Part shown: piece by piece, positions 6,291 through 61,695 of the stretch
Layout: each line of letters begins with the position of its first letter
Position numbering within the stretch: the first letter of the stretch is position 1
Origin: Chromatiales bacterium
GTDB lineage: Bacteria > Pseudomonadota > Gammaproteobacteria > JAJPIJ01
Assembly (NCBI GenBank): GCA_052388435.1
Contig: JBQTIC010000059.1
Location: forward strand, 14,395 to 78,394
Length of the DNA stretch: 64,000 nucleotides
Direction of reading: 5' to 3'
Position numbers and translations under genes: made by a program
The notes under the pieces: model-generated
Seen by the model: the letters and a program-made list of their open reading frames with translations, nothing else
The model's database searches: none
What the model was told of the DNA's origin: nothing

Positions 6291-6310
6291 AGCTCGATCC
6301 GGCACGGCGA

Positions 6311-8843: not shown

Positions 8844-8912
8844 CCCCGGTGCCATTCATGCCTGGGGAGTAACGCCGTGCTGGCCGATCCCTTAGTCGCC
8901 TGCCCGTGTTGA

Positions 8913-9722: not shown

Positions 9723-9725
9723 CGT

Positions 9726-9956
9726 AGGAGTCTGTCGGAGCTGACACGCCATGCGCATTGCTGGCCAGACACGGCTACGGCTGCGACCCGGTGCGCGCAG
9801 CGGCGAGTGCGGAAGCGGGCCCACGCACACCGAGGTCGCCATCGTTCCGGCGCGCCGACTCGGTCCCGCACCTGCCACTGCGCGAAACCGTAGACCGGTC
9901 GGCGCATCGAAAATCGCACACCGTCGCGCACAGCAGCTTGAGTCCGACAGACTCCT
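9726..9956. mobile_element. MITE-like element with perfect 14-bp terminal inverted repeats
   Basis: AGGAGTCTGTCGGA (9726-9739) and TCCGACAGACTCCT (9943-9956); 231 bp, no credible ORF; fills the mlaE-mlaF gap; no obvious target duplication. Confidence 0.65.
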
Positions 9957-9971
9957 GGCCCGGAGGGATGC

Positions 9972-10772: not shown

Positions 10773-11828
10773 ATGTGCATGCGACGCGATCACATCAATT
10801 ACTTCATCGTCGGCCTGTTCGTGCTCAGCGTCTCGGTCGCCCTGCTCGCCCTGCTCTACCGCCTCACGGGGACTACGGGACCGACGGACCGCTATTACGC
10901 CTACTACGATAACGTTGGCGGCGTGAAGTACGGCACGGTGACATACTACAAGGGCTACCAGGTCGGTCAGGTGGAGCGCATCACGCCCGAGCAGCGCGAT
11001 CACGCGACACGCTACCGCGTCGAGTTCAGTGTCACCCGCGGCTGGCAGATCCCACGCGGCAGTGCGGCCGCCATCGTCATCCCCGCCCTGCTCGCACCGG
11101 TCGTGATAGACATCCGCGAGGGGCCGGGACCGGAGCGGCTGCCGCCCGGTTCGGAACTCGAAGGGGCGGAGCAGGCGAATCTCTTCGCCGCCCTCAACGG
11201 CGTCGCGGCTGACTTCCACGAGCTGTCGAGAGAAGGCATCCAGCCCATGCTGCGCAATCTCAACGAGCGGATCACCGCGCTCAGCAAGGAGTACGAGTCG
11301 CTCTCGCGGGACGAGGTGCGGCCACTCCTGGAGCGGCTGCAGCAGCGTCTTGACGACCCGGAGCTTTTCGCCGATCTCAAACAGGTAATCGACAAGCTGG
11401 ACGCCGGCGCAGACGCACTGCTCTCAGTGCTGAGAGAAGAAAATCAGCAGCACCTCGCCTCCATCTTGTCCAATGCCGACCGTGGATCGGCGCAACTGAA
11501 CGAAGTGCTCGTACGTATCGAGGGTACGCGCGTGCTCATGCATCACCTGCTCGAACAGATGGACCAGCTGGTCGCTGAAAATCGCAGTGGTGTGACACAG
11601 ACCGTCGGGGACGCCGCGACCGCAATGCAGGAGCTGCGGGACAGCATCCGCACGGTGGCAGACAACGTGGATAGCATCCTGCATTATCTGGAGAGCGGCA
11701 CCCGCAACATAAATGAGTTCAGCCGCGAGGTGCGCGAGAATCCCGGGATACTCTTGCGTGGCAAACCGCCGCAGGATCCGCTGCCCCCCGGTGGCAACAA
11801 CAGCAGCAGCGTGGAGGAAGAGCCTTGA
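10773..11828 (+). CDS. mlaD: MlaD/MCE-domain protein with long helical extension
   Basis: N-terminal TM (VGLFVL), MCE motif VTYYKGYQVGQVERI, heptad-rich helical tail, end ENPGILLRG. Confidence 0.85.
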   Translation: MCMRRDHINYFIVGLFVLSVSVALLALLYRLTGTTGPTDRYYAYYDNVGGVKYGTVTYYKGYQVGQVERITPEQRDHATRYRVEFSVTRGWQIPRGSAAAIVIPALLAPVVIDIREGPGPERLPPGSELEGAEQANLFAALNGVAADFHELSREGIQPMLRNLNERITALSKEYESLSRDEVRPLLERLQQRLDDPELFADLKQVIDKLDAGADALLSVLREENQQHLASILSNADRGSAQLNEVLVRIEGTRVLMHHLLEQMDQLVAENRSGVTQTVGDAATAMQELRDSIRTVADNVDSILHYLESGTRNINEFSREVRENPGILLRGKPPQDPLPPGGNNSSSVEEEP

Positions 11829-12442
11829 GACATTGGAAGATCATCGCTTGTGTGCTGATCGGGCTCACCACTGGCTGCGGGCGCAATGTGGCGGTGCCGA
11901 CCGACGTCTACTATCGTCTTGGCGCACCTCGCGTGGCACAATCGCTCGCGCGGCCGCTGACGGAGGGGGTGTTGTTCGTGGGCACTTTTCGCAGCGACGG
12001 TCTGAGCGGCGAGCGGCCGCTGGTATACAGCGATGCCCCGGACGATCTCACACTGAGGCAATATCATTACCATCATTGGGAGGACCCGCCGCCGCGGCTG
12101 CTGCGTCGACAACTGGTGCACTACCTGCGCGCCGCAAAGGCTGCCGGAACCGTCATGTCGGGTAAGGAGGCCAAATCCGATCAGGTGGTGCGCGGGCGGC
12201 TGTGGCGTTTCGAGCACGTGTTGCGCAAGAATGACACCTTTGTGCGAGTAGCGCTGGAGCTGCGACTGGAGGATCGGGAAGGCCGCGCGCTGCTGTTGAA
12301 GGATTACGAGGTGGAGAAGGTCGCCGCGCGCAGGGACGTGGCAAGCGTGGTCGCGGCAATGGACGAGGCGGTCAACGAGCTGTACGGCCAGTTCCTGGCC
12401 GATGCCGCGCGTGCCACCTCCGCTTTGAGCGCGGCGCCGTGA
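11825..12442 (+). CDS. ABC-type transport auxiliary lipoprotein (PqiC-like)
   Basis: Lipobox LTTGC; YYRL, QYHYHHWEDPPPRLL, RFEH; follows the MCE gene with TTGA overlap. Confidence 0.8.
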   Translation: MRHWKIIACVLIGLTTGCGRNVAVPTDVYYRLGAPRVAQSLARPLTEGVLFVGTFRSDGLSGERPLVYSDAPDDLTLRQYHYHHWEDPPPRLLRRQLVHYLRAAKAAGTVMSGKEAKSDQVVRGRLWRFEHVLRKNDTFVRVALELRLEDREGRALLLKDYEVEKVAARRDVASVVAAMDEAVNELYGQFLADAARATSALSAAP

Positions 12443-14691: not shown

Positions 14692-14759
14692 GCACGCGGG
14701 TTGAACGGCCGTTGGATTGACAGAACTGATCTGCGGTGCCGCATGACTGGATTCGGGGC

Positions 14760-15200
14760 TTAGCTCCGGTCGCCCATGATGTAGTGCTGGAGCTGGTCGA
14801 TGATAAATCTCTGCTCGGAGATGATGTCCTTGACCAGATCGCCGATCGAGACGATGCCAACCAGCGTGCCGTCTTCAATGACGGGGAGGTGGCGCAGGCG
14901 GTTCTCGGTCATCAGTGCCATGCATCCCTCGTTGGTCTGGTCGGGGCGCACGTACATGACCGGGGAGGTCATGATTTCGCGCACGAATGTCTCCTTCGAC
15001 GCTCGCCCCATGAGCACGACCTTCCGGGCGTAATCGCGTTCACTGATGATACCGACGACCTCCTCGCCCTCCGTCACCACGAGCGCGCCGATGCCTTTGT
15101 CGGCCATCAGCCTGAGGGCGTCGAAGACCGACGCCGTGGGCGCGATGGTCTGCACGGTCTGATCCGGTTTGCCCTTAAGGATCTGAGCCACGGTTTTCAT
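14760..15200 (-). CDS. CBS-pair protein
   Basis: IGALVV...GIISERDYARK, RHLPV...GIVSIGDLVK. Confidence 0.9.
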   Translation of the reverse strand: MKTVAQILKGKPDQTVQTIAPTASVFDALRLMADKGIGALVVTEGEEVVGIISERDYARKVVLMGRASKETFVREIMTSPVMYVRPDQTNEGCMALMTENRLRHLPVIEDGTLVGIVSIGDLVKDIISEQRFIIDQLQHYIMGDRS

Positions 15201-15306
15201 GAGCGATTCTGCGTGGTAAAGCCTGGGGCGAAAGCGATCTGTCCGAATACTCAGGCGCGCTGCCGCCGCCCAAGGAAAGGAAATCCGGGGAGTCCGGTGC
15301 GGGGGA

Positions 15307-16041
15307 TTAGCGGCCGAGCAGGGTGAATTCCATCTTGATGCTGGCCAGCTCTACGATGTCGCCGTTTTTTAGCTCGTAGGCCTGCGGGCCTATCGCCGTG
15401 CCGTTGACCACGGGATAATGGGTTCCCCCTCCGTCGCTCTCGATATGGGTGAGGAAATAGCCCTGCGGGCGCCGGGAGATGACCGCGACCTGCACCCCGG
15501 GCTTGCCGAGCGTGATGAGCGCCTTGGTCAGTTCGAGTTCCTTCCCGGCAATCGGGCCGTTCAGAACGCGCAGCTTGCCGAGCGGCATGCCCGATACGGT
15601 CGCGGCAGCGGGTGCCGCGCTCGTGGCCATGGCCGGGGCTTGCTGAGGCGCCACGCCGGCATTGGCTGCCGCCTGCACGCTGGCGGCCGCCGCGCTGGCG
15701 GAGCCAGGACGGATGATCATTGTCTTCTCGAATTCCTCGTCGTGGGCCGTGGCGTGCTCGTTGACGTATTTCAACTCGTGCTTGCCGATACCGATAAGGT
15801 CGCCGTCGCGCAGGGCGTGCTTCTTGATGAGTTTGCCGTTGACGTAGGTGCCGTTGGTGCTGCCCAGGTCCTCCAGGAACGAGTCATCGAGGATGGTAAT
15901 GATGAGCGCGTGCTTGCCGCTCACGGCCAGGTTGTCGATCTGGACATCGTTATCCGGTTTGCGCCCAATCGTCGTGCGTTCCTTGGTGAGTGTGCATTCA
16001 CGCTGCACTGCACCATTCAAGCTAAGGATCAGTTTCGCCAT
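15307..16041 (-). CDS. FHA-domain protein (N-terminal FHA plus degenerate C-terminal FHA-like domain)
   Basis: TTIGRKPDND..VSGKHA..DLGSTNGTYVNG; Ala-rich linker; second domain ITLGKPG...LKNGDIVELA. Confidence 0.9.
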   Translation of the reverse strand: MAKLILSLNGAVQRECTLTKERTTIGRKPDNDVQIDNLAVSGKHALIITILDDSFLEDLGSTNGTYVNGKLIKKHALRDGDLIGIGKHELKYVNEHATAHDEEFEKTMIIRPGSASAAAASVQAAANAGVAPQQAPAMATSAAPAAATVSGMPLGKLRVLNGPIAGKELELTKALITLGKPGVQVAVISRRPQGYFLTHIESDGGGTHYPVVNGTAIGPQAYELKNGDIVELASIKMEFTLLGR

Positions 16042-16886
16042 AGGAACCTATCCCGTCTGTCGACCTTCTTCAACCAGCCCATTAGATTGTGCCAAGCTGA
16101 GCGCGCCGGGAAGCCACTCAAGACCCGTGCCAGAATCACAGAAATATTATCCTTACCCCCCTTGGCGTTAGCGACGCGGACCATCTCACGCCCTGCCTCT
16201 AAAAGATTAGCACTATATTTACTGAGGGTTAAGCGAATTTCTTCATCAGACATCATATCATTTAAGCCATCCGTACACAGCAGATAGATGTCCCCCGGCA
16301 GCACCCTCTCCTCAGTAATATCCACATCCACTGCATCTTCAATCCCCAAGGCCCGCGTGACAAGGTTTTTGGGGGTATTCGCGATTGCCTCCTCCTTGCT
16401 GAGGAAACCGCGGTCGACGAGTTCCTGCACCAGCGAGTGATCATTGGTCACCTGCTCGAAACTGCCACGGCGGAAGCGGTACAGGCGTGAGTCGCCGACG
16501 TGCGCTACGCAGATACGGTCATCGTAGAACAGGGTGCAGAGTACCGTCGTCCCCATGCCATGGCATTGAGGCTCGCTATTGGCCGTCTCGAAAATATGCA
16601 GGTTCGCCTTCTGGATGGCCTGTCTGAGCATCAACGCCCCCATGGTTCGGCCGCTGGCTTTGTCGATCTGGTGCGGTTCCCGTGCGGCGAGGCCGTGTCG
16701 GACCAGATCCATGACCACGCTGACGGCGATAGCGCTGGCGATCTCTCCCGCCTTATATCCGCCCATCCCGTCGGCGATCATGGCGAAACCCAGTCTCGGG
16801 TCGCTAGCGGTGCTGTCCTCATTGCGCGGGCGCTTTTGCCCAGGATCGGACAGGTTGACGACCTCCAGCGTTCCGGTGAGGTCCAT
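16029..16886 (-). CDS. Stp1/PppA-type PP2C Ser/Thr phosphatase
   Basis: NEDS, IADGMGG, GMGTT, AHVGDSRLY, DHSLVQE, LLCTDGL, GGKDNISV; TAATG coupling to the kinase stop. Confidence 0.92.
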   Translation of the reverse strand: MDLTGTLEVVNLSDPGQKRPRNEDSTASDPRLGFAMIADGMGGYKAGEIASAIAVSVVMDLVRHGLAAREPHQIDKASGRTMGALMLRQAIQKANLHIFETANSEPQCHGMGTTVLCTLFYDDRICVAHVGDSRLYRFRRGSFEQVTNDHSLVQELVDRGFLSKEEAIANTPKNLVTRALGIEDAVDVDITEERVLPGDIYLLCTDGLNDMMSDEEIRLTLSKYSANLLEAGREMVRVANAKGGKDNISVILARVLSGFPARSAWHNLMGWLKKVDRRDRFLWRN

Positions 16887-19432
16887 TACACTTGTTTTTT
16901 CTGGGCGCATGCCTGCAAGTCGCGGGCTAACTCGCCGCCGGTCTGATAGCGCCTGCCGATGTCCTTTTCGAGTGCCTTGTTGATGATCCCCTGCAGGCAA
17001 CGCTTGCCCTGGGCCAGCTCCGGTCGCGCCTCCAGGATGTCCTGGTGTGGTTCGTTCGCGATCTTGAACATCAGCGTGGCCATGGAATCACCGCGGAAGG
17101 GCAGACGACCGCTCAACAACTGGTACAGCGTGACGCCGAGTGAAAAGAGGTCGGAGCGGCCGTCGATCTTCTTGCCGGCCAGTTGCTCGGGCGACATGTA
17201 GGAAGGCGTGCCGAGAACCATGCCGGTTTTGGTCTTGCTCGAGTCGGTGATGCGCGCGATGCCGAAATCGGTGAGCTTGATGGCCTTGGCCTGCGGGTCG
17301 AACATGACGTTGGCGGGCTTGATGTCGCGGTGCACCACATTCTGCTGGTGCGCGTAATCCAGCGCCAGCGCGGCCTTATAGATGATGCCCATCACCAGCG
17401 GCACCGGCAGGAGGGCGTCCTCCTTGGTGTAGCGTGTGAGGTCGTGGCCGGTGAGGAATTCCATGGCGATGTAGGCGAGATCGTGCTCCTCGCCCGCGTC
17501 GTAGATGGTGACGATGTTGGGATGCTGGAGCCGGCCAGCGGTCTCGGCCTCCCGGAAGAACCGCTGCTTGACCTCATCGAGCTCGTCGGCCTCAAACTCC
17601 TGAGACAGCGCGAGGGTCTTGATCGCGACCACACGATTGATCTTCGGATCCCTTCCTAGGTACACGACACCCATCGCACCCTTGCCCAGCTCCTTTTCGA
17701 CCTGGTAGCGGCCCAGCATGGGCTTCTGCACCGAGCCATCGTTGAGCAGCAGCGTTCCGCCGGGGTGCGAACCCGCGCCGCCGAGCAGGACCGTGTCCTC
17801 CATCTGCTTGGCGCGCACCATGCGCGTCGCGAGATCGCGGAATTTCGGGTTGTGACCGCCAATGTACTGATACACATTGTTGGCCTTGTTGAACTGGCGC
17901 TTGCGCTCGTAGTCGAGGGCCAGGTTGTAGAGCGGATCCATGATCGAATCATCGAGCGGGCACTTGCGGAACTTCTCGAAAGCCATGTCGAGCTGGCCCT
18001 GCTGCTGGAAGGCCAGCCCGAGCATGCGGTTGCTCTCAGCCGATTCCACGTCGGCCTTCATCTTGCCACGCTCGGTGACCAGGAAGCGCTTCGTGGTGAG
18101 CAGCAGGTGGCCACAGAGCAATAGCACCGCGGCGAGCATCGTCTGCATCCAGTTGCCCGATTTCATCGAAAAGAAGCTCAACAGCAGCAGCGTGACCAGC
18201 AAACCGGCAGTGGCCGTCGCCGCCGGTCCGGCTTTGAGCTTCGGCAGCAGCCAGGCGAGATAAGCGCCCACCAGCAGGTACAGCAGCAGCTCCACCCACG
18301 GCGCCCAAGCCGGTATGACGAAGAAGTTCTCGTTCAGGATGCTGGAGACCGTGTGGGCGAGTATGAGCACGGGCGCCATCTGGCCGACCGGCGTGTGGAA
18401 AGTGTCGCCGATGCCGAAGGCAGTACCGCCAATGAGCACGGTTTTCCCGGCGTACTTCTGCGCCGGGATCTTTCCCGACAGAACATCGTAGAAGGAATCG
18501 ACCTGAAAGGCCGGTTCATTGCCGGCCTTGTTCTTGTAGAAGAAGGTGTGCATGCGCGAGATGGGATCCGTGCGGATGGACAGCTTGCCCAGCCTGACGG
18601 AATCGCCCTTCACCAGCTCGATGTCGCCTATGCCCAAGTTGAGGGAACGAGCAGCGATGGCCAGTGCGAGCGACGGGTAGTACCTGCTGTAGTAGTTAAT
18701 GGCCAGAAGATCGGTGCGGATGCCGCCGTCTGGATCCTGCCACTGGCTTAAGTGACCGACAAGCGCAGCCGTGCTGCCGAGAGCGGGGATCGGGGCGAAG
18801 AGCTGCCTGGCGGGGAAGGGCTCCACCTCGCCCAGAGGCCCGACGCTGATCTTGCTGTCGCCCAGCGCGCTCCTCTCGACGTACTCGGGCGTGGGCTTGT
18901 CGGGATTGCCAAGCGGGGCACCCAGCTCGAAGAGGCTGGACAAGACGACGTTGCCGGCGCTGCCAATGGCCTTCTCGAGCTTCCCGTCGTTATCGAGTTC
19001 ACCCTGCGCACTTCTCAGCTTGCTGCCAAGCTCGGCCAGCGCCGCATCGTCGCTTTGGGCCAGGCCGTTGGTCTCATAGAAGCCCAGAATGTCGTTGATG
19101 TATTGCAGTCCGGGATCGACCTGCGGCTCGGTGAAAAAGATTGTGTTGGCTATGACCTTGGCGCCGGCCTGCGCCAGCCTGTCGATTATCTCCGCGTGGA
19201 CCTTTCGCGGCCACGGCCAGCGGCCAATGTTGCTGATGCTGCTGTCGTCGATGGCGATGACGGCAATCTGGGCGCCAGGGTCCCGAGTCGAGGCGCGCAC
19301 ACCGAAGTCGTAAGCGGCGCGCTCCAGCGATTCCACCCACGCCGGCCGATCGCCCTTCAGGAACAGAAGCAGAAACAGCAGCGTGAGGACCACGCCGGCG
19401 AACCAATCGGTTTTCCAGAACGTTTTGCTCAT
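16886..19432 (-). CDS. CHASE2-domain Hanks-type Ser/Thr kinase with TPR-like linker
   Basis: CHASE2 (IAIDDSSI..GRWPWPR, DPDGGIR), TM helices, GKGAMGVVY, VAIK, HRDIKPAN, DFG, GTPSYMSPE. Confidence 0.93.
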   Translation of the reverse strand: MSKTFWKTDWFAGVVLTLLFLLLFLKGDRPAWVESLERAAYDFGVRASTRDPGAQIAVIAIDDSSISNIGRWPWPRKVHAEIIDRLAQAGAKVIANTIFFTEPQVDPGLQYINDILGFYETNGLAQSDDAALAELGSKLRSAQGELDNDGKLEKAIGSAGNVVLSSLFELGAPLGNPDKPTPEYVERSALGDSKISVGPLGEVEPFPARQLFAPIPALGSTAALVGHLSQWQDPDGGIRTDLLAINYYSRYYPSLALAIAARSLNLGIGDIELVKGDSVRLGKLSIRTDPISRMHTFFYKNKAGNEPAFQVDSFYDVLSGKIPAQKYAGKTVLIGGTAFGIGDTFHTPVGQMAPVLILAHTVSSILNENFFVIPAWAPWVELLLYLLVGAYLAWLLPKLKAGPAATATAGLLVTLLLLSFFSMKSGNWMQTMLAAVLLLCGHLLLTTKRFLVTERGKMKADVESAESNRMLGLAFQQQGQLDMAFEKFRKCPLDDSIMDPLYNLALDYERKRQFNKANNVYQYIGGHNPKFRDLATRMVRAKQMEDTVLLGGAGSHPGGTLLLNDGSVQKPMLGRYQVEKELGKGAMGVVYLGRDPKINRVVAIKTLALSQEFEADELDEVKQRFFREAETAGRLQHPNIVTIYDAGEEHDLAYIAMEFLTGHDLTRYTKEDALLPVPLVMGIIYKAALALDYAHQQNVVHRDIKPANVMFDPQAKAIKLTDFGIARITDSSKTKTGMVLGTPSYMSPEQLAGKKIDGRSDLFSLGVTLYQLLSGRLPFRGDSMATLMFKIANEPHQDILEARPELAQGKRCLQGIINKALEKDIGRRYQTGGELARDLQACAQKKQV

Positions 19433-19593
19433 GGAGGAACGCTGGGAGGAAGCTTTCTTGGGCTCTTGCAGTCCCGCTGATAGTACCACTTATGCTAACA
19501 GTAAGAATAGCTTACGCCGACAGGACGCGAATGCAGCCGCGAGTGAGCCCGTGGATGCCCGGCCCTCAGGCCGGTGGCCCGCAGCACCTGCGA

Positions 19594-51424: not shown

Positions 51425-53320
51425 ATGTCCCCCAACGGTGCTTACCCGCTTCTGAGTCGCATCAGCTCACCGGCCGATCTGCGGCGGATGCCGGAATCGC
51501 AACTGGGGTCCCTCGCGACAGAGTTGCGCAATTTCCTGGTCGAATCGGTGAGCCAGAGCACCGGTCATTTCGCAGCAGGTTTGGGGACTATCGAACTGAC
51601 CATCGCGCTGCACTACATCTACAACACTCCCGGGGATCGGCTGGTGTGGGACGTCGGTCATCAGGCCTATCCGCACAAGATTCTGACCGGCCGCCGTGAC
51701 CGCATCCTGACCATCCGCAAATGGGGCGGTCTGGCGCCTTTCCCCAAGCGCGACGAGAGCAATTACGACACCTTCGGGGTTGGTCACTCGAGCACCTCCA
51801 TCGGAGCCGCACTGGGCATGGCCATCGCTGCCCAGAAATCCGGTAGCCGGCGTAGGGCGGTGGCCATCATCGGCGATGGCGGACTGACCGCGGGCATGGC
51901 CTTCGAGGCACTCAACCATGCCGGCGACCTCGGCGCCGATCTGCTGGTCGTCCTCAACGACAACAACATGTCAATCTCGCCCAACGTCGGCGCGCTCTCT
52001 AGCCGCTTCGCGCAGATCCTCTCCGGCAAGCTGTACACGACCATCCGCGAGGGCAGCAAGAAGGTGCTGGCACACATGCCGCCGGTGCGGGAGTTGGCAC
52101 GCCGGGCCGAGGAGCACATGAAAGGACTTATCGTCCCAGGCACGCTGTTCGAGGAGTTCGGCTTCAACTACATCGGGCCCATTGATGGGCACGACCTGCA
52201 CGCGCTGATTCAGACCTTGCGCAACATCCACGAGCTGCGGGGCCCGCAGCTTCTGCACATCATCACCAGGAAGGGGAAGGGTTATGCGCCCGCGGAGGAA
52301 GATCCGGTCAAGTACCACGGCATCTCCTCGCCTTTCGATCCGGAACTGGGTGTGCAGCCCTCGGGCAAGCCATCGCGACCCACCTACAGCGACGTCTTCG
52401 GCGAGTGGGCGTGCGACATGGCGGAGGCGGATGCGCGCCTGGTCGCCATCACGCCGGCAATGCGCGAGGGGTCCGGCCTGGTCAAGTTCCACAAGCAGTT
52501 CCCGGATCGCTACTTCGATGTCGCCATTGCCGAGCAGCACGCGGTGACGCTCGCCGCCGGCATGGCCTGCGACGGACTGAAACCGGTCGTCGCGATCTAC
52601 TCCACCTTCCTGCAGCGCGCCTACGATCAGCTCATCCACGATGTGTGCCTGCAGAACCTGCCGGTGTTGTTTGGCATTGATCGAGCCGGCCCGGTCGGCA
52701 ATGACGGCCCGACACATAACGGTTCCTACGACGTGAGCTTCATGCGCTGCTTGCCCAACATTGTGCTGATGGCACCCGCCGACGAAGACGAATGCCGGCA
52801 GATGCTGTACACAGGATTCACGCTGGATCAGCCCGCCGCAGTGCGCTACCCTCGTGGCAGCGGTCCTGGGGTGGTGGTCCAGAAGGCCATGACTGCGCTG
52901 CCCGTCGGCACAGCCGAAGTGCGCCGGCGGGGCAGGGGTGTGGCCATACTGTCCTTCGGCACGCCCCTATCGATCGCGCTGCCGGTGGCCGAGGAACTGG
53001 ACGCGACGGTGGTCAACATGCGCTTCATCAAGCCGCTTGACGCCGACATCATCCTGGAGATGGCGGAATCGCACCAACTCCTCGTGACGCTGGAGGAGAA
53101 TGTCGTCGAGGGCGGCTGCGGTAGCGCCGTCAACGAGGCGCTCGCGGCGCGGGGGGTTGTCGTCCCGGTGCTCAACTACGGACTGCCCGATCGTCTCATC
53201 CAGCACGGTTCGCAGGACGACATGCGCAGGGACGCGCGGTTGACCAGGGACGATCTGCTGCGCGCAATCCAGTCCCGGCAGCAGTCACAGCCGAGGCTCC
53301 GCCCCGCGCACCGCGCGTAG
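51425..53320 (+). CDS. dxs: 1-deoxy-D-xylulose-5-phosphate synthase
   Basis: [56 protein letters not shown]. Confidence 0.97.
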
Positions 53321-53464
53321 GCCGCCAGCCCGCTCCCGACACTCCCCGTTTTCCCTGACGGGGAACTTGAGTCACTTGAACCCGATACCTTGTTGCCAGG
53401 CATTTGACCGCCTCGGTCAATCTGCTAGTGTTTTCCCAGGCATGGCTTTCCTGGAGCGTCGGGC

Positions 53465-54151
53465 ATGAAATCATCGATCGTAAGGTGGTTGTGGGTCATG
53501 GTGCTCTGGGCGGCCACCCATGCGGCGACGGCCGCAGAGGTCGCAGGTGAAGTGACCGCGGTGAGCGGCGAGGTGTACGGCCAGCTCTCAGGCGAGCCGC
53601 AGCGCAGGCTTGCGCAAGGGGCAAAGGTTTACGCCGGCGATGAGATCAGAACCGCGGCGAACTCCAGCGTCGAGCTACTGTTCGGCGATCAGACGCGCTT
53701 CGTCCTCGGCCCGCAGTCGCAGATGAGCGTCACCCAGTACCGCTACCAGCCGGGCGACGCTGGGAGCCTCTTCGACACCAGAATCTTACAAGGCGTATTC
53801 CGTTTCTTCAGCGGGCTCATCGCCAAGCAACGGCCACAGGCGGTGAGGATAAGCATGCCTGTCGCCACCATCGGCATACGCGGCACGCACGTGCTCGGAG
53901 AGGTGACCGCGACCTCGGCCATCGTGGCCCTGCTGGAGCCCGAAGAGGCCGGTGAGCCGACAGCGATCGAAGTGTCGAATCAATATGGAAGCGTGGTTCT
54001 CGATCAGCCCAACTACGAAACCGTGATCCCGGACGCCAACAGTCCGCCCTCGCCGCCGCGTCGGGTACAGACTCAACGCATCGACAATCTGCTTCGCTCC
54101 ATACACACCATCCGCCGTATCAATATTCCGCGCCCGGGCTACCATCGCTAA
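53465..54151 (+). CDS. Exported FecR-domain protein, paralog 2
   Basis: Signal peptide ending ATA-AEV, GDEIRT, LGPQS, QGVFRF, TIGIRGT; shares LLEPEEAG and IDNL.RSI..I.RI..PRP with paralog 1. Confidence 0.85.
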   Translation: MKSSIVRWLWVMVLWAATHAATAAEVAGEVTAVSGEVYGQLSGEPQRRLAQGAKVYAGDEIRTAANSSVELLFGDQTRFVLGPQSQMSVTQYRYQPGDAGSLFDTRILQGVFRFFSGLIAKQRPQAVRISMPVATIGIRGTHVLGEVTATSAIVALLEPEEAGEPTAIEVSNQYGSVVLDQPNYETVIPDANSPPSPPRRVQTQRIDNLLRSIHTIRRINIPRPGYHR

Positions 54152-54194
54152 CTAATCATTCGGTCGGACAGGGGCGTTTGTCGGGGTTGGCGCG

Positions 54195-55025
54195 TTGAAT
54201 CAGGCGTCGCTCATCGGGGCCATGTGCATGGCGCTGATAGTCGCGGCGTGCGCGACGACGCCGTCCCACCGATACGACACCGAGGCGCAGCACTTGGGCT
54301 TTCAGCGGGAAGTCGTGCCGGGGACGGCGTTCTCGCACGTCGTCTATATGCGTCCGTCACAATCGAGGCGCGAGCCCTTGCACGTCTACCTCGAAAGCGA
54401 CGGCTCACCCTGGATCGGCAGTACACGCATTGCCGCCGATCCGACGCCCACCGAGCCGGTCGCGCTGCGCCTGATGCGCCTGGATCCTTTACCCGCCGCA
54501 CTCGTCGGCCGGCCCTGCTACAACGGAATGCATTCCTCGCCCCCCTGCCGTCCGGCATTGTGGACACACGGCAGATACTCCGAGGCGGTCGTGGCAAGCA
54601 TGGCCGTCGTCATCAGACACCTGATGCAACAACACGGCACTGCCGCGATAGTGCTTATTGGCTACAGCGGCGGCGGAACGCTGGCGATGCTGCTGGCGGA
54701 GCGGTTGCCTGACGTCGCCGCCGTCGTCACGCTGGCTGGCAATCTGGATACCGATCGATGGACGGAGTTCCACGACTACTCGCCGCTCACCGGATCACTC
54801 AATCCGGCGTCGCGCCCGCCGTTGCCGTCGCGGATTGTGCAATGGCATGTGGCGGGCGGCAGAGACAGGAATGTGCCGCTCGCACTGATTAACGATGAAG
54901 TGAAACGGCAGCCGAACGCACGGCTCAGGGTGCTTCCGAAAGCGGACCACGCCTGCTGCTGGGAGCAGGCGTGGCCGCAGATCCTGGAAGAAATCGAGGT
55001 GCTGTCCAGCGCCCGCGCACCCTGA
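54195..55025 (+). CDS. Alpha/beta hydrolase lipoprotein, paralog 2
   Basis: Lipobox VAAC; YLESDG; GYSGGG; DRNVP; DHACCW. Confidence 0.85.
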   Translation: MNQASLIGAMCMALIVAACATTPSHRYDTEAQHLGFQREVVPGTAFSHVVYMRPSQSRREPLHVYLESDGSPWIGSTRIAADPTPTEPVALRLMRLDPLPAALVGRPCYNGMHSSPPCRPALWTHGRYSEAVVASMAVVIRHLMQQHGTAAIVLIGYSGGGTLAMLLAERLPDVAAVVTLAGNLDTDRWTEFHDYSPLTGSLNPASRPPLPSRIVQWHVAGGRDRNVPLALINDEVKRQPNARLRVLPKADHACCWEQAWPQILEEIEVLSSARAP

Positions 55026-55056
55026 GCGGGTGCATCGACTGTACACTCACGCTGGG

Positions 55057-56457
55057 CTAAAACTGTAGTCGCGCGCCGACTTCAAAGGCGTGCACGGCCA
55101 GATCTTCGTAGCCGATCAAACCCTGGTACAGGAAGTGGCCGTACCAGCCGTTGCGGAAATCCGTGGTCAGCCCGGCGCTCACACTGCCATAGTTCCTGTC
55201 GGGCTCATCGGTCGGGAGCAGGAACGTCGAGCCGCTCGTGTCCTGCACCAGCCGTCCAGTGGTGTCCTCGTTGTCGTTGTCGAATTCATGTACGTACTCG
55301 ACGCCGACTTGCGGAAACACATCGAAGGACTTTGCACTGATCGCTGTCAGCACGCGGCCGCCTATCGCCGTCGTAACAGAGGTGAAGGCCTGATCGTCGA
55401 TCTGGAGGGCGAAATCGGAGTTTACCGTACCCGGCGCGGGCGGACCCAGGATCTCCGTGAAGCCATCGATCTCGGTATGCGCGACATCGAGGCGCGCGTA
55501 CGGCGTCATGGTCCACCGGCCACGGTAGAAGTCGTAACCCGCCTCGAGACTTCCGGCGATCTCGTCGCTGTCGGTGTCGGAGAAGGCGGTTTGATTGACG
55601 ATCGACGCCGTGCCCGCGATGGTGTAGATGATGTTGCGCTCCTGGTCATGATCGGTGGCGGAGTAACTGGCGATGGCATTGATGTACGACTGCGGAGATG
55701 GGTAGTAACTGCCATACAGCGATCCGGAGATGCCATCCGTGTCCAGGCTGCCGCTGTTGCTGTCGAGATCCACATCCTGTGTGGTGTAGCCCACCGCCAG
55801 ACCGACGAGGGACTGATCGCTAAGCCGGTAGTCCACTCCGCCCGTCACGCCGTAACTGTTGAGATCAAAGCCGGTCTCACGCAAGGTGGTGTCCTTGTCG
55901 CCTAAGCCGAAGTTGCCGTTGAGGAATACGCCCAACCGTCCGCTGCCCAAATTGTCCGCACTGGCGCCCCCGCCGCGAGGGCTGCCTAAGATTTCCGAGG
56001 CAGTCAGCCGCTTGCCGTCGATGGTAATGTTGATGGCTGTTTCCTCTTCCTCATCCTCTTCTTTGCGCCGCTGCTCCAGCCGTTCGCGCAGCTCGTCAGT
56101 CTGGGGCGGTGAACCCTCAACCTCGATCGTTTGTACTGCGGAGTTTTCTTCCGGCGCCATGGCCTGCAGGCCGGCGAGCGCGCCGCTGATGTCGCCGCCA
56201 CTAAGGATTGCTCCGGCAATATCGTTACAACGATCCTGAAGATCGGAACTCAGGATAGAAGGGCTTGCTGGACAGATAAACCCGACCAGTTCGCCTGTGA
56301 CCTGCTGCGGAGGCGTCTGCCCTGCTGATCTCAATATGGGTCCTCCGCCACCGTTCGCTCCGGGCCCTGGTATGACCGACTGAGCGCAGATATCGGTAGC
56401 GATGGCCAGCGAGATGCAGGCAGATAAAGCAGTGCGTCGCAGGGTGCAGCTTCGCAT
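55057..56457 (-). CDS. Autotransporter-type outer-membrane beta-barrel protein with a very short N-terminal domain
   Basis: Signal peptide, about 130-aa region with two Cys, barrel motifs GVTGGVDY, ISGSLYGSY, DGFTE, EYVHEF, terminal Phe (GARLQF). Confidence 0.82.
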   Translation of the reverse strand: MRSCTLRRTALSACISLAIATDICAQSVIPGPGANGGGGPILRSAGQTPPQQVTGELVGFICPASPSILSSDLQDRCNDIAGAILSGGDISGALAGLQAMAPEENSAVQTIEVEGSPPQTDELRERLEQRRKEEDEEEETAINITIDGKRLTASEILGSPRGGGASADNLGSGRLGVFLNGNFGLGDKDTTLRETGFDLNSYGVTGGVDYRLSDQSLVGLAVGYTTQDVDLDSNSGSLDTDGISGSLYGSYYPSPQSYINAIASYSATDHDQERNIIYTIAGTASIVNQTAFSDTDSDEIAGSLEAGYDFYRGRWTMTPYARLDVAHTEIDGFTEILGPPAPGTVNSDFALQIDDQAFTSVTTAIGGRVLTAISAKSFDVFPQVGVEYVHEFDNDNEDTTGRLVQDTSGSTFLLPTDEPDRNYGSVSAGLTTDFRNGWYGHFLYQGLIGYEDLAVHAFEVGARLQF

Positions 56458-56674
56458 CGGTTCCCCCTCCCGTCTCGAAGAATGCATGGAGTTTGTTGGT
56501 CTCTAGCCTACTCCTACGAAAACTCCTTGGCAAATTAGTGCCTTCCTTTGGAAACCTGAGAAGGAGTTTAGACGGCTTTTTGAATCTGATCGATGCCGCA
56601 AGAGCCGCGCTGTGCGAGTAACGACGGTTGGCGGGAGGGCCGGGCAACGTGAGCAGGGGGCGCCGGAGCGGCGG

Positions 56675-57760
56675 CTACGGCCGCACTATGCTGTCGAAGG
56701 CGGCGAGCAGGCGTTGAATGTCGGCCGATGTGATCTCTCCCATGGTGGAGATGCGAAAGATCGACTTCGCAAGAGCGCCTTGCCCGGAGTAGATGACAAA
56801 ACCGTGTGCTTTGAGGTGATCGTGCAGCCGTTCGTAGCTCATCCCCGCGGGCAGGCGATAAGCGTGGAGGACGACCGAGGAGACGCCATCCGGCAGCAAT
56901 GGCTTCACGCCCAGCGCAACGAGGCCACTGCGCGCCTGTTGCGCAAGCGCCGTATACCGTGACTGCCGAGCACGCCATCCACCCTGCTCGGCGAACTCGA
57001 CAAGCGCTTCATCGAGCGCATAGAAGCTGTGCACCGACTGCGTAAACGGCGTGCCACCGTGGTCCTGCTCGCGGCAGTAGGTATTCAGATCGAGATAGAG
57101 CGTGCGGCGAGGTAGCGTGTCATCGTCGAGGGCATCGCGGCGGACAATCACGAAGGCCGTACCCGGCACACCGTGGAGGCACTTGTTCGCCGTTGCCGCG
57201 CATGCCGTGATGCCCCACTCCTCGAAATCGAGTTCCTCGGCGCCAAAGCTGCTCACCCCGTCGAGCAACAGGCCCACGTAACGCTCGCGGCACAGGCGGG
57301 CGATGGCTTCGATGCGGTTCAGCCGGCCCGTCGTGGTCTCGTGGTGGACAATCGCCACGTGCGAGATGTCCTGGTGCTCGTCGAGCAGCAGCCGCACGCG
57401 CTGGGTGTCGACCTCCCCGCCCCACTCAAGCGACAATGCCAGGTGGGGAATGCCATGAATGGCGGCGATCGTCCTGAGCCGTTCGCCGTAGACGCCGTTC
57501 GCGATGATGAGCAGCCTGCTGCGCGCGGGCCCGAGGCTGCTGACCATCGCCTCCATCGCTGCGGTCCCAGAGCCGGTCAGCAGCACCGCGGCATAGCGTC
57601 TTGGGTCGAGCCCGTACACCTCCAGCAGTCTGGCGCGGATCCGGTTCTGCAGTTCTGCAAACTCCGGCTCGCGATGGCAGAGATCTGGCCTCTTGAGGGC
57701 GGCGCGCACGCGCGCGCTCAAGGTCACCGGTCCGGGATTGAGCAGAACGATCGATGACAT
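56675..57760 (-). CDS. aepZ: 2-aminoethylphosphonate aminotransferase (class V PLP), biosynthetic by context
   Basis: LLNPGPV, GSGTAAME, NGVYGER, HHETTTG, DGVSSFG, ANKCLHGVPG, PFTQSV. Confidence 0.9.
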   Translation of the reverse strand: MSSIVLLNPGPVTLSARVRAALKRPDLCHREPEFAELQNRIRARLLEVYGLDPRRYAAVLLTGSGTAAMEAMVSSLGPARSRLLIIANGVYGERLRTIAAIHGIPHLALSLEWGGEVDTQRVRLLLDEHQDISHVAIVHHETTTGRLNRIEAIARLCRERYVGLLLDGVSSFGAEELDFEEWGITACAATANKCLHGVPGTAFVIVRRDALDDDTLPRRTLYLDLNTYCREQDHGGTPFTQSVHSFYALDEALVEFAEQGGWRARQSRYTALAQQARSGLVALGVKPLLPDGVSSVVLHAYRLPAGMSYERLHDHLKAHGFVIYSGQGALAKSIFRISTMGEITSADIQRLLAAFDSIVRP

Positions 57761-58914
57761 CAGAAACGGGTGCGGATGTGGTTCATCAGCCGGCGGACGA
57801 CCTCCGGCGGCGTGATCTTGGGCCGCGGGAGATCTTCGATCGTGCCAGTGGCGATCTTGACGTGCGCCAGCTTGGGCCCTCGATGCGTGGTGTCGCGCAG
57901 CAGCGTGTCGATAATGTCGGGCGTGTCGCCGCCGATGCTCAGGCCATAGCCGCACGCCTGCGCGATCTTTGCGAATGCGACACTCGCGCTGACGGTAGAC
58001 TGGCCGCCGGTTGACTCATGCGCCTCGTTGTCGAGTACGATGTGATAGAAGTTATCGCCGCCATATGCGCCGACCGTTGAGAAGTTGCCCATGCGCATGA
58101 GAGCCGCGCCGTCGCCATCGATGACGATCACCTTCAGGTCGGGCCGTGCCAGTGACAGACCCAGGCCGAGCGAGGAGGCGCAACCCATCGAGCCGACCAT
58201 GTAGAACTGGTTGCTGCGATCGGACAGGGCATAAAGCTCGCGACCGGTGTAGCCGGTGGTGGCAATAATCACGCTGTGCGTTTCCGGCGCAAGCGAGACG
58301 AGGCGCCGCAGCGCCTCGTTGCGCGACGGCCGCTCGGTGCCTGCCGCCGGGCTTGTCGATATCACCTCGCCAGGCCCGCGGACGTCGCCGGGCGAACGCC
58401 TGCGCAACTCGTGCTTTGCGACGGTGCCCCCCTGCATCAGGAACCCGTACGGCCGCTGCTCGCGCTCCATGTAGTCCTGGGCGCGAGCGAGTGCAGCGTC
58501 GATATCCTCGGCTCCAGTTGGGAATCCCTCCCAGGGCACGCGCATGATGTCGAACATCGACCCGGTGATCCGACCCATCAGTTCGTGCTGGGGCTCATCC
58601 TGTATGCCTGGTGCGCCGCGGTGGGTGCAAACCATGAGCGTGGGAATGCGGAACACATAGCTGAGAGATGTGATGGGGCTCACCGCGTTGCCTAGTCCGG
58701 AGTTTTGCAGCATGACCACCGCACGCTTGCCGCCGATTGCCGCACCGGCTGCCGTGGCCAGGGCGTCGCCCTCGTTGGCGGAGGAGATGTAACTTAACTT
58801 GTCGTCATTGATGACGTAATTGATGAAAGGAGTGAGAAAGGAGCACGGCACGCCCGTGTAGGTCTGGTAGCCGCGCGCGCGCGCCGCCTCCACAAACTGC
58901 TCCGCCTGAATCAT
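57760..58914 (-). CDS. aepY: Phosphonopyruvate decarboxylase
   Basis: GVPCSFL, NEGDA, MLQNSGLGNAVSP, EPQHELMG, FYMVGSMG, DGDGAALMRMG, HESTGGQ. Confidence 0.95.
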   Translation of the reverse strand: MIQAEQFVEAARARGYQTYTGVPCSFLTPFINYVINDDKLSYISSANEGDALATAAGAAIGGKRAVVMLQNSGLGNAVSPITSLSYVFRIPTLMVCTHRGAPGIQDEPQHELMGRITGSMFDIMRVPWEGFPTGAEDIDAALARAQDYMEREQRPYGFLMQGGTVAKHELRRRSPGDVRGPGEVISTSPAAGTERPSRNEALRRLVSLAPETHSVIIATTGYTGRELYALSDRSNQFYMVGSMGCASSLGLGLSLARPDLKVIVIDGDGAALMRMGNFSTVGAYGGDNFYHIVLDNEAHESTGGQSTVSASVAFAKIAQACGYGLSIGGDTPDIIDTLLRDTTHRGPKLAHVKIATGTIEDLPRPKITPPEVVRRLMNHIRTRF

Positions 58915-59093
58915 CGTGTTGGTTCAGCTGCGATCGAAGAACTGAGGTACAGGGGCGCCAATTTCGCCGGGAACGTTTTGTCGGGAACAAAACGTCGCGA
59001 CAGCCGCGAGGCGGTGAGTCTCAGGAATGGGGCGAGCAGGAAAATTGCGCGCCAGCCCCCTATGGGTGAGGCACAGGGGTGAGCCCGAACAGT

Positions 59094-59148
59094 GAGCGCC
59101 CCGGTGGGGCGCTCGCCGGGCGAACGGACATGCCACGGATGGCGTGGC
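59094..59148. repeat. Hairpin/REP-like palindromes in the pepM-ppd spacer
   Basis: GAGCGCCCC-GGT-GGGGCGCTC (59094-114); GCCAC..GTGGC (59132-148). Confidence 0.45.
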
Positions 59149-59296
59149 CTGGACTTGCGATGCGAAGCAGGAATGCGCAGCTTTGTAAGCGTCGAGCAAT
59201 TCCTTTGGCTGTATATCGAGTTCTTTGGACATTGCGCCCAGATCTTCAGAGGCCGGCGGGCAGAGTGAGCGCTCCTCTGGTTTGCGCAACGACGTG

Positions 59297-60952
59297 TCAC
59301 TGGGCACCACGGGTGAAGTCGCCGGCGCGATCGAGGTCTTCCAGGGAATTCACATCGAGCCAATGACCGTTGATGTAGAGCACGCGGATCGGCCGTGCCT
59401 GTTCCACGAGATAGTTGAGGACGTGTGGAAGACCGAGCACGTGATAGTCGGCACGCCGCTTCATCGCCCCGAGGGCCTCGAGCAGCCAGCCTCGTCCCGC
59501 GCCACGCACGCGCAGCATGCCGATCCAGCGCCCGGAACAGCGCTCCGCTGCCGCGCCGGTTTCCTTGCCGACACGCAGCAGGCGCACGTCGTGATCCAAC
59601 ACCGCGCGGTCATCGGGCACCGAGCACCACGCGTAGTCCGGAGAGCCGCTGGCGGGTTGGGTCGCAGTCGCGGAATCCACTACCGTCACGATCTCACCGT
59701 CGCTGTCGAGCAGGTCGCGCAGGATGTAGCTGCGGAACAGCAGGTCCCCGTAAAGGATGACTGTGTCATCGCCAACGTCGCTCTCCGCGCAGACCAGAGA
59801 GGCGAGCTCGCCGGTGGTAGCGTAATGAGGATTGACGGTCACCTTGATTCCGGGTACATCGATGGCGTCAGCGCGGTAGCCGGCGACCACGGTCGTGTCG
59901 TTGATGCCCTCCCTCTTGAATTCGTCGATCAGCCGGCGCAGCAGTGGCTTGCCGCTGATGGACAGCATGACCTTGGGCCGCGACTGCGTGAGCCGTTCCA
60001 GCTCGTCACCGCGGCTGGCAGCGAGAACGATCGCGCGGGGACGAGCCTGGCTACCTCCCGCATAACGCAGCTCCGCCTCCTTCAACTCGGCTGCGCCCTG
60101 CAGGCGGAAGATCTCGTTCACGGAGGCAATTCCGTCTTCGACGTTGAGCAGGCTCCCGGTGCGCTGGATCTCGCTGGCCACCGACTGCATCGCCGCGACC
60201 GCGGCGCGGACCATATGATTGGCCCAGATGACCAGGCTGATCCTGGCGCGCCTGTAAACCTCCACCGGTGTCGAGTAATACTTGGTCGGGACTATGATGA
60301 CGGGCGCGCGATTGCACCACTCCTTCGCGAAGGCAAGGATCTCTTCCGCGCGCGACAGTTTGCTGTGGATGAGGATGGCGTCGGCCCCGGCTTGCCGGTA
60401 TGCGTCGGCGCGGCGAATCGCTTCCGTCATGTCCCAGCCGGCGATGAGCGCTTCGACGCGCGCGACGATGCAAAAGTCGCGGTCGTTCTGACTGTCCTTG
60501 CCGGCCTTGATCTTGCCGCAGAACTCGTCGATGTCGGCGAGAGGCTGCCGCTCGCCGTCGATGAAGCTGTTGGCCTTCGGAAAGAGCTTGTCCTCAATGC
60601 AGACGCCCGCGACATTGCGTTGTTCGAGCTTGCGCACCAGCCGGCGCATGTTATTGAAATTGCCGTAGCCGGTGTCGCCGTCGAGCAGGATCGGGATGGT
60701 GGTGGCGTCAGTCATGAATTCCAGCATGTCCACCACCTGCGTCCAGCTTGCCTCGTTGTTGTCGCGCACGCCGAACTGCGCCGACACTGCCAGACCGCTC
60801 GCCCAGATGCCTTTGAAGCCGGCCTCCTCGACGATGCGCGCGGACAGACCATTGTGCGCTTCCATGATGAACTCAAGCTCAGGCGATAGCAGCAACTGCC
60901 GTAGTCGCGCGGCACGGCTCGAGCGCGCGGTGATGAGCTCTGGCTTGTTCAT
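59297..60952 (-). CDS. pepM: Phosphoenolpyruvate mutase fused to a C-terminal nucleotidyltransferase-like domain
   Basis: [24 protein letters not shown] mutase signature [18 protein letters not shown]; tail [21 protein letters not shown]. Confidence 0.96.
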
Positions 60953-61695
60953 GTGTCTGCGTTGAGTTGCGGCAGGATCTCGCGGTCGGCGCGCGCGATG
61001 TCCTCCGGGAAGTCAATCTCGACCCAGGGCAGGCCAGTCACGTCCTCGAAGCCGAAGACCCCCGGTGTCGCAAGCAGCAGGTCGCGAATGGCCTCCTCAT
61101 AGGGCTCCTGGCGCCGGCCGCCGTTAACGTAGTCCTCCGTCATCCGGGCTAGCCGCCCCGCGGTCCTCTCCTCGAAGCGGAAGAACCCCACCGATTCGCC
61201 CACGAAATCATACTCCAGATCCGCCGTGATCCGCTTGCGGAACTCCACCAGGCGGCCGTCGCGCACGCACAGTTTCACCGGCTCCTCGCCAGGCTCGAAA
61301 TCGCGGTCGAGCAGGAAGCAGTTGGGCTTGTTCGTGCTGACGAGCCGCTCGAGCAACACGGGATGGTAGAGCACATCCGCATCCATGAGGATCACGTCCC
61401 CTCCGGGGCGCAGGTAGTGGCGCATCGCCCAGAGGCTGACGACGCTGCCTTCGCGATAGTCTGGGTTGAGCACCGTGGAGATGAGCTTGGCGTGAGGGCT
61501 CGCCGCCACGGCCTCGCGCAGCATTCCCGCCTCGTGCCCCACGCATAGGGCGACATGGCCAACGCCGAGATCGGCGAGACATTCAAGATGGTGCGCGAGC
61601 AGCGTCCTGCCGCCGAAGGCGAGAAGGCTCTTCGGACCGTGATGAGCGTCGCCGAGGCGGCGGCCGACTCCGGCGGAGAGGATGATGGCTCTCAT
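60949..61695 (-). CDS. Phosphocholine cytidylyltransferase family (PntC-like)
   Basis: [39 protein letters not shown]. Confidence 0.88.

Follow-up and report, generated by a model that had tools for sequence, protein, structure and literature searches.

Which inner-membrane signalling proteins, if any, receive information from a small outer-membrane barrel that is encoded beside a secreted FecR-fold protein and a lipoprotein hydrolase? The question is raised by a 64,000-nucleotide stretch of DNA from a Chromatiales bacterium (assembly GCA_052388435.1, 2.93 Mb and 99.5% complete; contig JBQTIC010000059.1, or C59, positions 14395-78394; hereafter the window), in which the genes for three such proteins, here called FecR2, Hyd2 and AT2, stand together, and which also encodes a cyclase and a kinase that carry CHASE2 domains. 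An earlier note on this DNA, made from its sequence, had proposed that the barrel, the soluble FecR protein and the two CHASE2 enzymes form a signalling chain that needs neither TonB nor a σ factor, with the hydrolase making or removing the ligand. Judged by its gene content and layout in related genomes, the trio is a real conserved cell-envelope cassette. On balance, we favour the reading that it and a second, paralogous cassette are old copies of a FecR-bearing variant of a hydrolase-barrel core, in which FecR2 would serve as an adaptor. No observation links this cassette in particular to the window's two CHASE2 enzymes.

A conserved cassette in two copies

All three genes that the earlier note had described were recovered (Table 1). 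A gap of 44 nt separates FecR2 from the start of Hyd2, and AT2 runs towards Hyd2, their stop codons 31 nt apart. The neighbours of FecR2 are dxs, Hyd2 and AT2, and a promoter and terminator scan of positions 53250-56750 returned nothing above chance. The trio, cassette 2, has a paralogous counterpart at the other end of the window, where the FecR-hydrolase pair that the earlier note had counted as the first proved to be real. In this cassette 1, FecR1 is followed by the barrel gene AT1 on the minus strand, and Hyd1 is divergent; FecR1 is ~46% identical to FecR2, and Hyd1 is 35% identical to Hyd2. When AT1 and AT2 were used as phmmer queries (E<=1e-5), they were the only autotransporter barrels found in the window's genome (below, G000 is this genome, other G numbers are sampled genomes, L numbers are fetched loci, and C numbers are contigs of G000).

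The layout of cassette 2 is the same in four genomes of the window's family (G001, G002, G004 and G006), where it occurs without phosphonate genes, and that of cassette 1 is the same in three of them (G002, G004 and G006). The duplication is old, since genus g3 of this family has cassettes of both types, arranged as in the window. The trio recurs in other families and in metagenomes, with further instances in G277, G217, G003, L148 and L149, FecR plus barrel pairs in G005, G018, G105 and L146, and divergent pairs of the Hyd1-FecR1 kind in five other families. The view of the trio as a unit thus stands, on the layout that these four genomes conserve and on its recurrence in others. Among the 301 genomes of a class sample, used here for counts of co-occurrence and neighbourhood, Hyd relatives are present in 45 and full-length proteins of the FecR1/2 type in 13, and 12 of these 13 also contain Hyd (odds ratio 93, p 4e-10). 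In other genomes, FecR1/2-type orthologues adjoin Hyd, an autotransporter barrel or both.

In genus g3, three loci (L046-L048) also hold, 3-4.5 kb from cassette 2, a gene for a soluble Ser/Thr kinase of 428-431 aa that carries a cyclic-nucleotide-binding domain. The G000 orthologue of this kinase lies on another contig (C84:4524-6059).

Predicted properties of the three proteins

FecR2 matches the Pfam FecR family (1.9e-9 over aa 59-155), above the curated cut-off, and begins with a signal peptide (…THAATA|AEV). In its 228 residues there is neither a transmembrane helix nor an anti-sigma part, and no gene for an extracytoplasmic function (ECF) σ factor or a TonB-dependent transducer adjoins it. 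An alignment of FecR1/2-type proteins reveals a conserved C-terminal extension (…EPEE.G..TAIEVSN..GSV.ID…SPPSPPR…LRSIQ..RR…PR). The N-terminal half of these proteins weakly matches the retention module of LapA/MpIBP RTX adhesins (NF033682, 2e-9, below the cut-off of that model) and, also weakly, the N-terminal region of the Marinomonas ice-binding adhesin (PDB 5IX9, 4.8e-4).

Hyd2 is most probably an active serine hydrolase. It has a lipobox (VAAC, Cys19), and its sequence and model have the features expected of a serine α/β hydrolase, that is, a GxSxG nucleophile elbow, Asp and His in canonical order, and the fold. Across 26-30 homologues, Ser158 (GYSGGG), Asp224 and His252 (DHxCCW) do not vary, and they line up with the cinnamoyl esterase triad region; four Cys (C108, C118, C254 and C255) are conserved. 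The AlphaFold2 model (predicted local distance difference test, pLDDT, 92.1) matches just generic esterases, lipases and peptidases, with template-modelling scores of about 0.6, and the membrane phospholipase PlaF is among these fold matches.

By profile match and structural model, AT2 is a type Va autotransporter barrel with a small helical two-Cys domain as its only 'passenger'. The Pfam Autotransporter match (3e-54) spans aa 187-454, and the protein carries a signal peptide. In the AlphaFold2 model (mean pLDDT 81.8), six short helices (aa 39-137, local pLDDT about 90) are followed by a disordered acidic linker (aa 135-171) that contains KEEDEEEET, and by a 12-strand barrel with long strands (aa 175-465), so that between the helix at 119-137 and strand 1 lies a disordered stretch of 35 aa. 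The best Foldseek matches are EstA (3KVN, 2.7e-18), then AaaA, NalP and EspP, with BrkA also present (range 1e-18 to 1e-10), and the NCBIfam EstP model is matched at 4e-12. The N-domain, ~100 aa and helical, contains C62 and C77. In an alignment of 43 homologues this Cys pair is kept, as are the motifs TPPQ…ICP…RC…GLQAMAPEE…RL..LR, and homologues of 440-475 aa have the same short N-domain. No adhesin, protease or esterase passenger was found, and no Pfam or NCBIfam model matches N-terminal to the linker. The earlier note's description of an autotransporter-type barrel with a very short two-Cys N-domain and no recognisable passenger is therefore correct by Pfam, model and alignment. The acidic linker was also considered as a family feature and rejected, as the same alignment confines KEEDEEEET to close relatives.

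A hydrolase-barrel core with varying partners

The wider setting of the trio emerged from a scan of species genomes with an alignment of the Hyd2 type, which returned 502 relatives; the best 80 loci (L046-L125) were examined with 10-kb flanks. These loci are biased to the Hyd2 type because this narrower alignment was used, the 26-sequence Hyd alignment being too divergent. The constant core is a lipoprotein serine hydrolase plus a small autotransporter barrel, in >500 species of proteobacteria and a few others. Within the 10-kb flanks, Hyd is accompanied by an autotransporter barrel in 56 of the 80 loci (35 of them with the two genes adjacent), by a Ser/Thr kinase in 47 (27 adjacent), and by an exported Sel1-repeat protein with a caspase domain (Peptidase_C14) in 46; a FecR1/2-type gene is found near Hyd in 14 and a cyclase in three. 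Signalling enzymes stand beside the core far more often than chance would place them. The hydrolase-linked kinases consist of a kinase domain, one transmembrane helix and a short periplasmic tail, with the motif GRLxxPxGxNAxxAYxxVL in 20 of 47, and genes for PP2C and FHA proteins are often beside the kinase. In Marinobacterium rhizophilum (L075) the order is FHA, PP2C, kinase, Sel1-C14, Hyd, cyclase-FHA, AT; in Methylomicrobium lacus (L066) it is Sel1-C14, kinase, Hyd, FHA-SLT, VipA/B-like, AT, TagF-PP2C.

The FecR-bearing loci differ from the rest. The caspase is absent from all 14 of them and present in 46 of the 66 others (p 9e-7), the kinase occurs in 3/14 versus 44/66 (p 0.003), and the barrel is always there (14/14). 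Beside cassettes 1 and 2 of the window, too, neither a Sel1-caspase nor a Hanks kinase was found. From these patterns of FecR, caspase, kinase and barrel across the 80 loci, we take the window trio to be the FecR variant of the module.

Two other arrangements were seen. In the L066 chromosome (5969-17318) the module is interleaved with FHA-SLT, fused VipA/VipB sheath-like and TagF_N-PP2C proteins, and there are no other type VI secretion system (T6SS) genes within the 20 kb examined. A co-directional operon of Gallionellaceae/Nitrosomonadales type (L053, L076, L077, L079, L092, L098, L102, L112 and L118) comprises AT, Hyd, a secreted protein of 1560-1850 aa and a FecR1/2-type protein. The large protein has Peptidase_S8 and cadherin domains in L053, the sole one scanned; a subtilase seems to take the caspase's place in this operon. 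The genomes concerned carry 3-8 CHASE2 genes each.

How the FecR variant might work

A signalling role for the cassette is plausible, and by association it would belong to an envelope signalling and proteolysis system. In the mechanism that we favour, AT2 would insert in the outer membrane, and its small helical N-domain, held by a disulfide bond, would be exposed on the cell surface in the manner of a type Va passenger. Lipid-anchored Hyd2, at the periplasmic face of the same membrane, would cleave an ester or amide bond in an envelope compound, in an incoming compound or in the N-domain of AT2 itself. Soluble periplasmic FecR2 would then be the adaptor that carries the state of the barrel-hydrolase pair to an inner-membrane signalling protein encoded elsewhere. 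Candidate receivers are the window's two CHASE2 enzymes or a gene set on contig C121 (3496-6847; L152), which encodes a cyclase-FHA protein (299 aa), a PP2C (250 aa) and a Hanks kinase (483 aa). This set is orthologous to the signalling genes that flank the hydrolase in Marinobacterium: its cyclase-FHA protein matches that of L075 at 1e-76, and in a kinase-domain tree its kinase falls inside one of the hydrolase-linked clades.

Several observations weigh against this mechanism. The nearest AT2 homologue (76% identity, L001/L002) has no Hyd or FecR neighbour, nor do those in L003 and L005 (42-44% identity), so a barrel of the AT2 type is able to exist alone, and its place after a phosphonate operon in three genomes means that it may be co-transcribed with that operon. 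The topology of the N-domain is taken from the family; if it is surface-exposed, it would be out of reach of periplasmic FecR2. Structure searches with Hyd2 gave no informative relative that points to a function or substrate. The C121 kinase has no obvious sensor part, because only ~18 residues follow its membrane helix. Finally, the neighbourhood maps rest on our own calls of open reading frames (ORFs) and on single-sequence phmmer searches, by which one CHASE2 domain was missed until a profile was built.

The phosphonate genes bear on a different account of AT2. The gene for the 2-aminoethylphosphonate (AEP) transaminase of the phosphonate operon lies ~220 bp upstream of AT2. Together with genes for phosphoenolpyruvate (PEP) mutase and phosphonopyruvate decarboxylase, it makes up the phosphonate set upstream of AT2 (window 55057-61695). 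The order of phosphonate operon then AT2 is kept in L001/L002 and L146, from two other uncultured Gammaproteobacteria, and in L146 AT2 and FecR2 stand between the operon and hpnH, a glycosyltransferase, MlaC and MlaA, as they do in the window. AT2 could then be a chance neighbour of the FecR-hydrolase pair that belongs functionally to the upstream operon, as the short gap, the shared strand and the recurrence of AEP transaminase-AT2 in L001/L002 (without FecR or Hyd) and in L146 would suggest. We regard this as very unlikely, since the convergent FecR2-Hyd2-AT2 arrangement is found without phosphonate genes in G001, G002, G004 and G006, trios occur in G277, L148 and L149, a barrel is a frequent neighbour of Hyd across the 80 loci, and the only other autotransporter barrel of G000 is also beside the other FecR-Hyd pair.

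A second account dispenses with signalling and treats the trio as a unit for outer-membrane remodelling or a surface enzyme, in which Hyd2 is an esterase or lipase that works with, or is displayed via, an EstA-like barrel (a 'split' esterase autotransporter), the substrates are hopanoids and phosphonolipids made by the flanking genes, and FecR2 is a periplasmic chaperone or plug. The barrel of AT2 is indeed closest to EstA and EstP in sequence and structure, the structural hits of Hyd2 include PlaF, three genomes have AT2 downstream of the phosphonate operon, and in L146 the barrel gene stands between that operon and hpnH/MlaC/MlaA. LapA-type retention modules plug an outer-membrane channel from the periplasm, and the N-terminal half of the FecR proteins resembles such a module. 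The lipid genes, however, are not beside the cassettes in genus g3, beside cassette 1, or in nearly all of the 80 Hyd loci, the conserved neighbours of Hyd and AT are kinase, PP2C, FHA and caspase genes, and no GDSL or lipase-specific features were found in Hyd2, so this account appears improbable. It and the chance-neighbour account are ranked below a relay to the CHASE2 enzymes, because the local context on which each of them draws fails across relatives.

Is the cassette linked to the CHASE2 enzymes?

The proposal that barrel, soluble FecR2 or FecR1 and hydrolase feed the window's CHASE2 cyclase, its CHASE2 kinase or both draws on the behaviour of secreted FecR-like proteins as a class. CHASE2 occurs in 164 of the 301 genomes; it is present in 82/85 genomes that have a secreted FecR-like protein and in 82/216 that do not (odds ratio 45), and a CHASE2 gene is found no more than 6 kb away from 38 of 136 secreted FecR-like genes. 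In the literature, LysM-FecR proteins are encoded beside CHASE2 histidine kinases (PMC5192318), and a CHASE2 cyclase of Campylobacterota is clustered with a FecR protein and a tetratricopeptide repeat (TPR) protein (PMC9239204). The Sinorhizobium meliloti gene discussed below, which encodes a FecR-TPR-barrel chain, abuts a CHASE2 cyclase gene, and the FecR-variant cassettes mostly have no kinase of their own. CHASE2 is found in 20/23 FecR-variant genomes versus 39/54 other Hyd genomes and 54% of the class sample; two of the three exceptions are metagenome-assembled genomes that are 64-75% complete, and the third is of unstated completeness. Two Hyd-AT loci, L147 and L027, directly abut a CHASE2 cyclase. 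These observations also led to a refined form, in which the FecR adaptor replaced the caspase and the Hanks kinase and so rewired an ancestral hydrolase-barrel surface sensor to CHASE2 receptors.

The evidence that concerns this particular type of FecR protein points the other way. In the class sample, CHASE2 is within 10 kb of none of the 14 FecR1/2-type genes, versus 40 of 136 other FecR-like genes, and G000 is the only genome with a FecR1/2-type gene even within 35 kb of one. A 23-sequence CHASE2 profile, which does recover the cyclases in L147 and L027, detected no CHASE2 gene in the 10-kb flanks of Hyd at any of the 80 loci, the 14 with FecR included; phmmer with the two CHASE2 domains of G000 gave none there either, although that kind of search missed the L147 cyclase. 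L147 and L027 are themselves without FecR, and the FecR proteins that do adjoin CHASE2 mostly resemble the C38 and C59:122 paralogues rather than FecR1/2. The difference between FecR-variant and other Hyd genomes (87% vs 72%) does not reach significance when lineages are taken into account, and phylogeny confounds it. In S. meliloti, the FecR-domain protein SMc02177, encoded beside cyaD1, is not required for signal perception (PMC5498481). In genus g3, neither cassette shares a contig with the CHASE2 cyclase-kinase pair, so the proximity seen in the window is not kept within the family.

The two CHASE2 receptors reported by the earlier note are themselves genuine, each with a Pfam CHASE2 match. 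Such a cyclase (~750-790 aa) and kinase (~850-1020 aa), 4-5 kb apart on opposite strands, form a pair that is conserved in many families with or without the cassette (G003, G005, G039, G250, G217 and many others), and its frequency in genomes that have no cassette also speaks against a dedicated link. The window's CHASE2 cyclase is the final gene of an MCE/Mla-type operon. The CHASE2 kinase was considered as an orthologue of the hydrolase-linked kinases and rejected, as it groups in the kinase tree with other G000 kinases, outside the hydrolase-linked clades.

Phylogenetic profiling, a check that the earlier note had suggested, thus divides. The FecR-like class co-occurs with CHASE2, whereas 11 Hyd-positive genomes are without CHASE2 and the variant difference is not significant. 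The proposed signalling chain fares likewise: the conserved trio, the presence of signalling enzymes beside the core and the tracking of CHASE2 by the FecR class support it, and the fact that FecR1/2 genes are never near CHASE2 elsewhere counts against it. We consider a relay from the cassette to the window's CHASE2 enzymes unlikely, though its probability is not negligible, and assign the same low probability to its refined form.

The NsrA precedent and other candidate inputs

The precedent, the only outer-membrane input to CHASE2 cyclases that has been studied, was cited correctly by the earlier note: S. meliloti NsrA is an outer-membrane barrel protein that acts upstream of the CHASE2 adenylate cyclases CyaK, CyaD1 and CyaD2 (PMC7529298; PMC13001267), with a barrel portion at aa 600-1200 (PMC7529298). 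On the S. meliloti replicon pSymB we found a gene whose 1190-aa product combines a FecR domain and TPR repeats with a C-terminal half that has no Pfam match, and the gene right after it encodes CHASE2 and cyclase domains. CyaK (SMb20776) is the sole CHASE2 cyclase with a pSymB locus tag, those of CyaD1 and CyaD2 being chromosomal (PMC5498481, PMC13001267). The 1190-aa protein is very probably NsrA because of its size, its replicon and its CHASE2 cyclase neighbour, cyaK alone being pSymB-tagged, and NsrA would then carry a FecR domain itself and would not belong to the autotransporters. In pSymB of strain R14 (L154, CP130053.1, 8600-10540), the CHASE2 and cyclase domains lie in different frames with no coding sequence listed, which reflects either a cyaK frameshift (pseudogene) in R14 or a sequencing error.

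The precedent therefore does not carry over to an autotransporter barrel. The cassette and the NsrA-CyaK/CyaD1/CyaD2 pathway are alike in that an outer-membrane barrel would act together with a periplasmic FecR fold and would use neither TonB nor a σ factor, and G000 likewise has CHASE2 cyclase and kinase receptors. The probable NsrA, however, is a single FecR-TPR-barrel chain, whereas AT2 is a 12-strand type Va barrel that has no FecR, no TPR and no barrel of ~600 aa, and its FecR protein and hydrolase are separate.

A homologue of the NsrA type is encoded elsewhere in G000, on contig C112 (1511-6229; L150). This 1572-aa protein has FecR and TPR domains, a long stretch that has no Pfam match and a C-terminal Pom-type barrel, and it is 29% identical to the pSymB protein over 1221 aa (1e-97). 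A search of the 301 genomes with it, in which two candidates per genome were scored, gave matches almost all to the C-terminal Pom-like barrel; few genomes of the class sample hold a full-length relative, and G003 and G005, from the window's family, gave none. On contig C38 (14457-20125; L151:5458-11126), a 470-aa TPR and outer-membrane-barrel protein is followed by three tandem secreted FecR proteins (558, 496 and 263 aa), a cluster that looks like a split NsrA. The C112 protein and the C38 cluster would more probably than the cassette provide the input of the CHASE2 enzymes.

Comparison with other envelope signalling systems

The regulators FecR, PupR and FoxR work with FecA-type transducers and ECF σ factors, and their periplasmic FecR domain docks on an outer-membrane barrel. 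FecR2 shares their Pfam domain but has a cleavable signal peptide in place of a membrane helix and a cytoplasmic anti-sigma domain, and its barrel partner is an autotransporter rather than the product of an adjoining transducer gene. In EstA, as in the cassette, a serine hydrolase goes with a barrel of the kind best matched by AT2. The GDSL esterase of EstA (3KVN), however, is the passenger of the same chain, whereas here the hydrolase is a separate α/β lipoprotein and the barrel bears only its small N-domain.

In the Pseudomonas aeruginosa H1-T6SS, threonine phosphorylation involves TagQRST, PpkA, PppA, Fha1 and TagF, and the signal passes from a lipoprotein of the outer membrane and a periplasmic protein to a single-pass Hanks kinase that has PP2C and FHA partners. 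Relatives of the cassette adjoin genes for a kinase, PP2C, FHA, TagF_N-PP2C and sometimes VipA/B-like proteins, a likeness drawn from gene context, but the window's cassette has neither kinase nor T6SS genes beside it.

The small FecR proteins linked to CHASE2 (COG4254 LysM-FecR/PA4035, SMc02177 and those of Campylobacterota) resemble FecR2 in domain, export signal and size (PMC5192318, PMC5498481, PMC9239204), and some match it near full length at ~30% identity (G009:C8, G216:C1). Even so, the FecR1/2 type forms a separate group with a conserved C-terminal tail, and its neighbours in other genomes are Hyd and AT, never CHASE2. The components and the general logic, by which an outer-membrane protein and a periplasmic adaptor signal to a membrane kinase or cyclase, are known from systems such as TagQRST-PpkA and NsrA-CyaK. 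In a limited literature search, neither the hydrolase-barrel module nor its FecR variant was the subject of any paper, and the module is apparently undescribed.

Features of the window

Table 1. Coordinates of the two cassettes, the CHASE2 genes and associated genes (window positions, except for AT1)
Feature	Position	Strand	Basis or context
FecR2, secreted soluble FecR-fold protein, 228 aa	53465-54151	+	Pfam FecR PF04773
Hyd2, predicted α/β-hydrolase lipoprotein, 276 aa	54195-55025	+	Pfam Abhydrolase_1, DLH
AT2, predicted type Va autotransporter barrel, 466 aa	55057-56457	-	Pfam Autotransporter PF03797
FecR1, FecR2 paralogue	41-727	-	tblastn and ORF map
Hyd1, Hyd2 paralogue, lipoprotein divergent from FecR1	about 806-1717	+	tblastn/ORF map
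AT1, second barrel, 366 aa	contig C59:13178-14278, just upstream of window	-	Pfam Autotransporter 9.5e-24
CHASE2 adenylate/guanylate cyclase	12439-14691	+	Pfam CHASE2 2e-58 and Guanylate_cyc
CHASE2 Ser/Thr kinase	16886-19489	-	Pfam CHASE2 9e-53 and Pkinase
PP2C gene	16029-17000		after CHASE2 kinase
FHA gene	15307-16041		after CHASE2 kinase and PP2C

Implications

The close association of FecR-fold proteins with CHASE2 receptors, which emerged from this survey as near-obligate companions, means that CHASE2 sensing becomes testable as a contact between proteins, and in G000 contigs C112 and C38 are places to look for the CHASE2 input besides the cassette. If a relay from the cassette to the CHASE2 enzymes were true, it would constitute a chain from the outer membrane to the cytoplasm that uses neither TonB nor a σ factor, and it would give CHASE2 domains a defined protein input.

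For the favoured reading of the trio as the FecR-bearing variant of a hydrolase-barrel core, the breadth of that core is what matters most. It is present in at least 500 species genomes, including those of cultivable methanotrophs and Marinobacterium, and is almost always accompanied by signalling or proteolytic partners. The FecR variant is in this sense a natural experiment, in which one small FecR-fold protein takes the position that a caspase and a kinase hold in other loci, and it hints at the role that each part may play.

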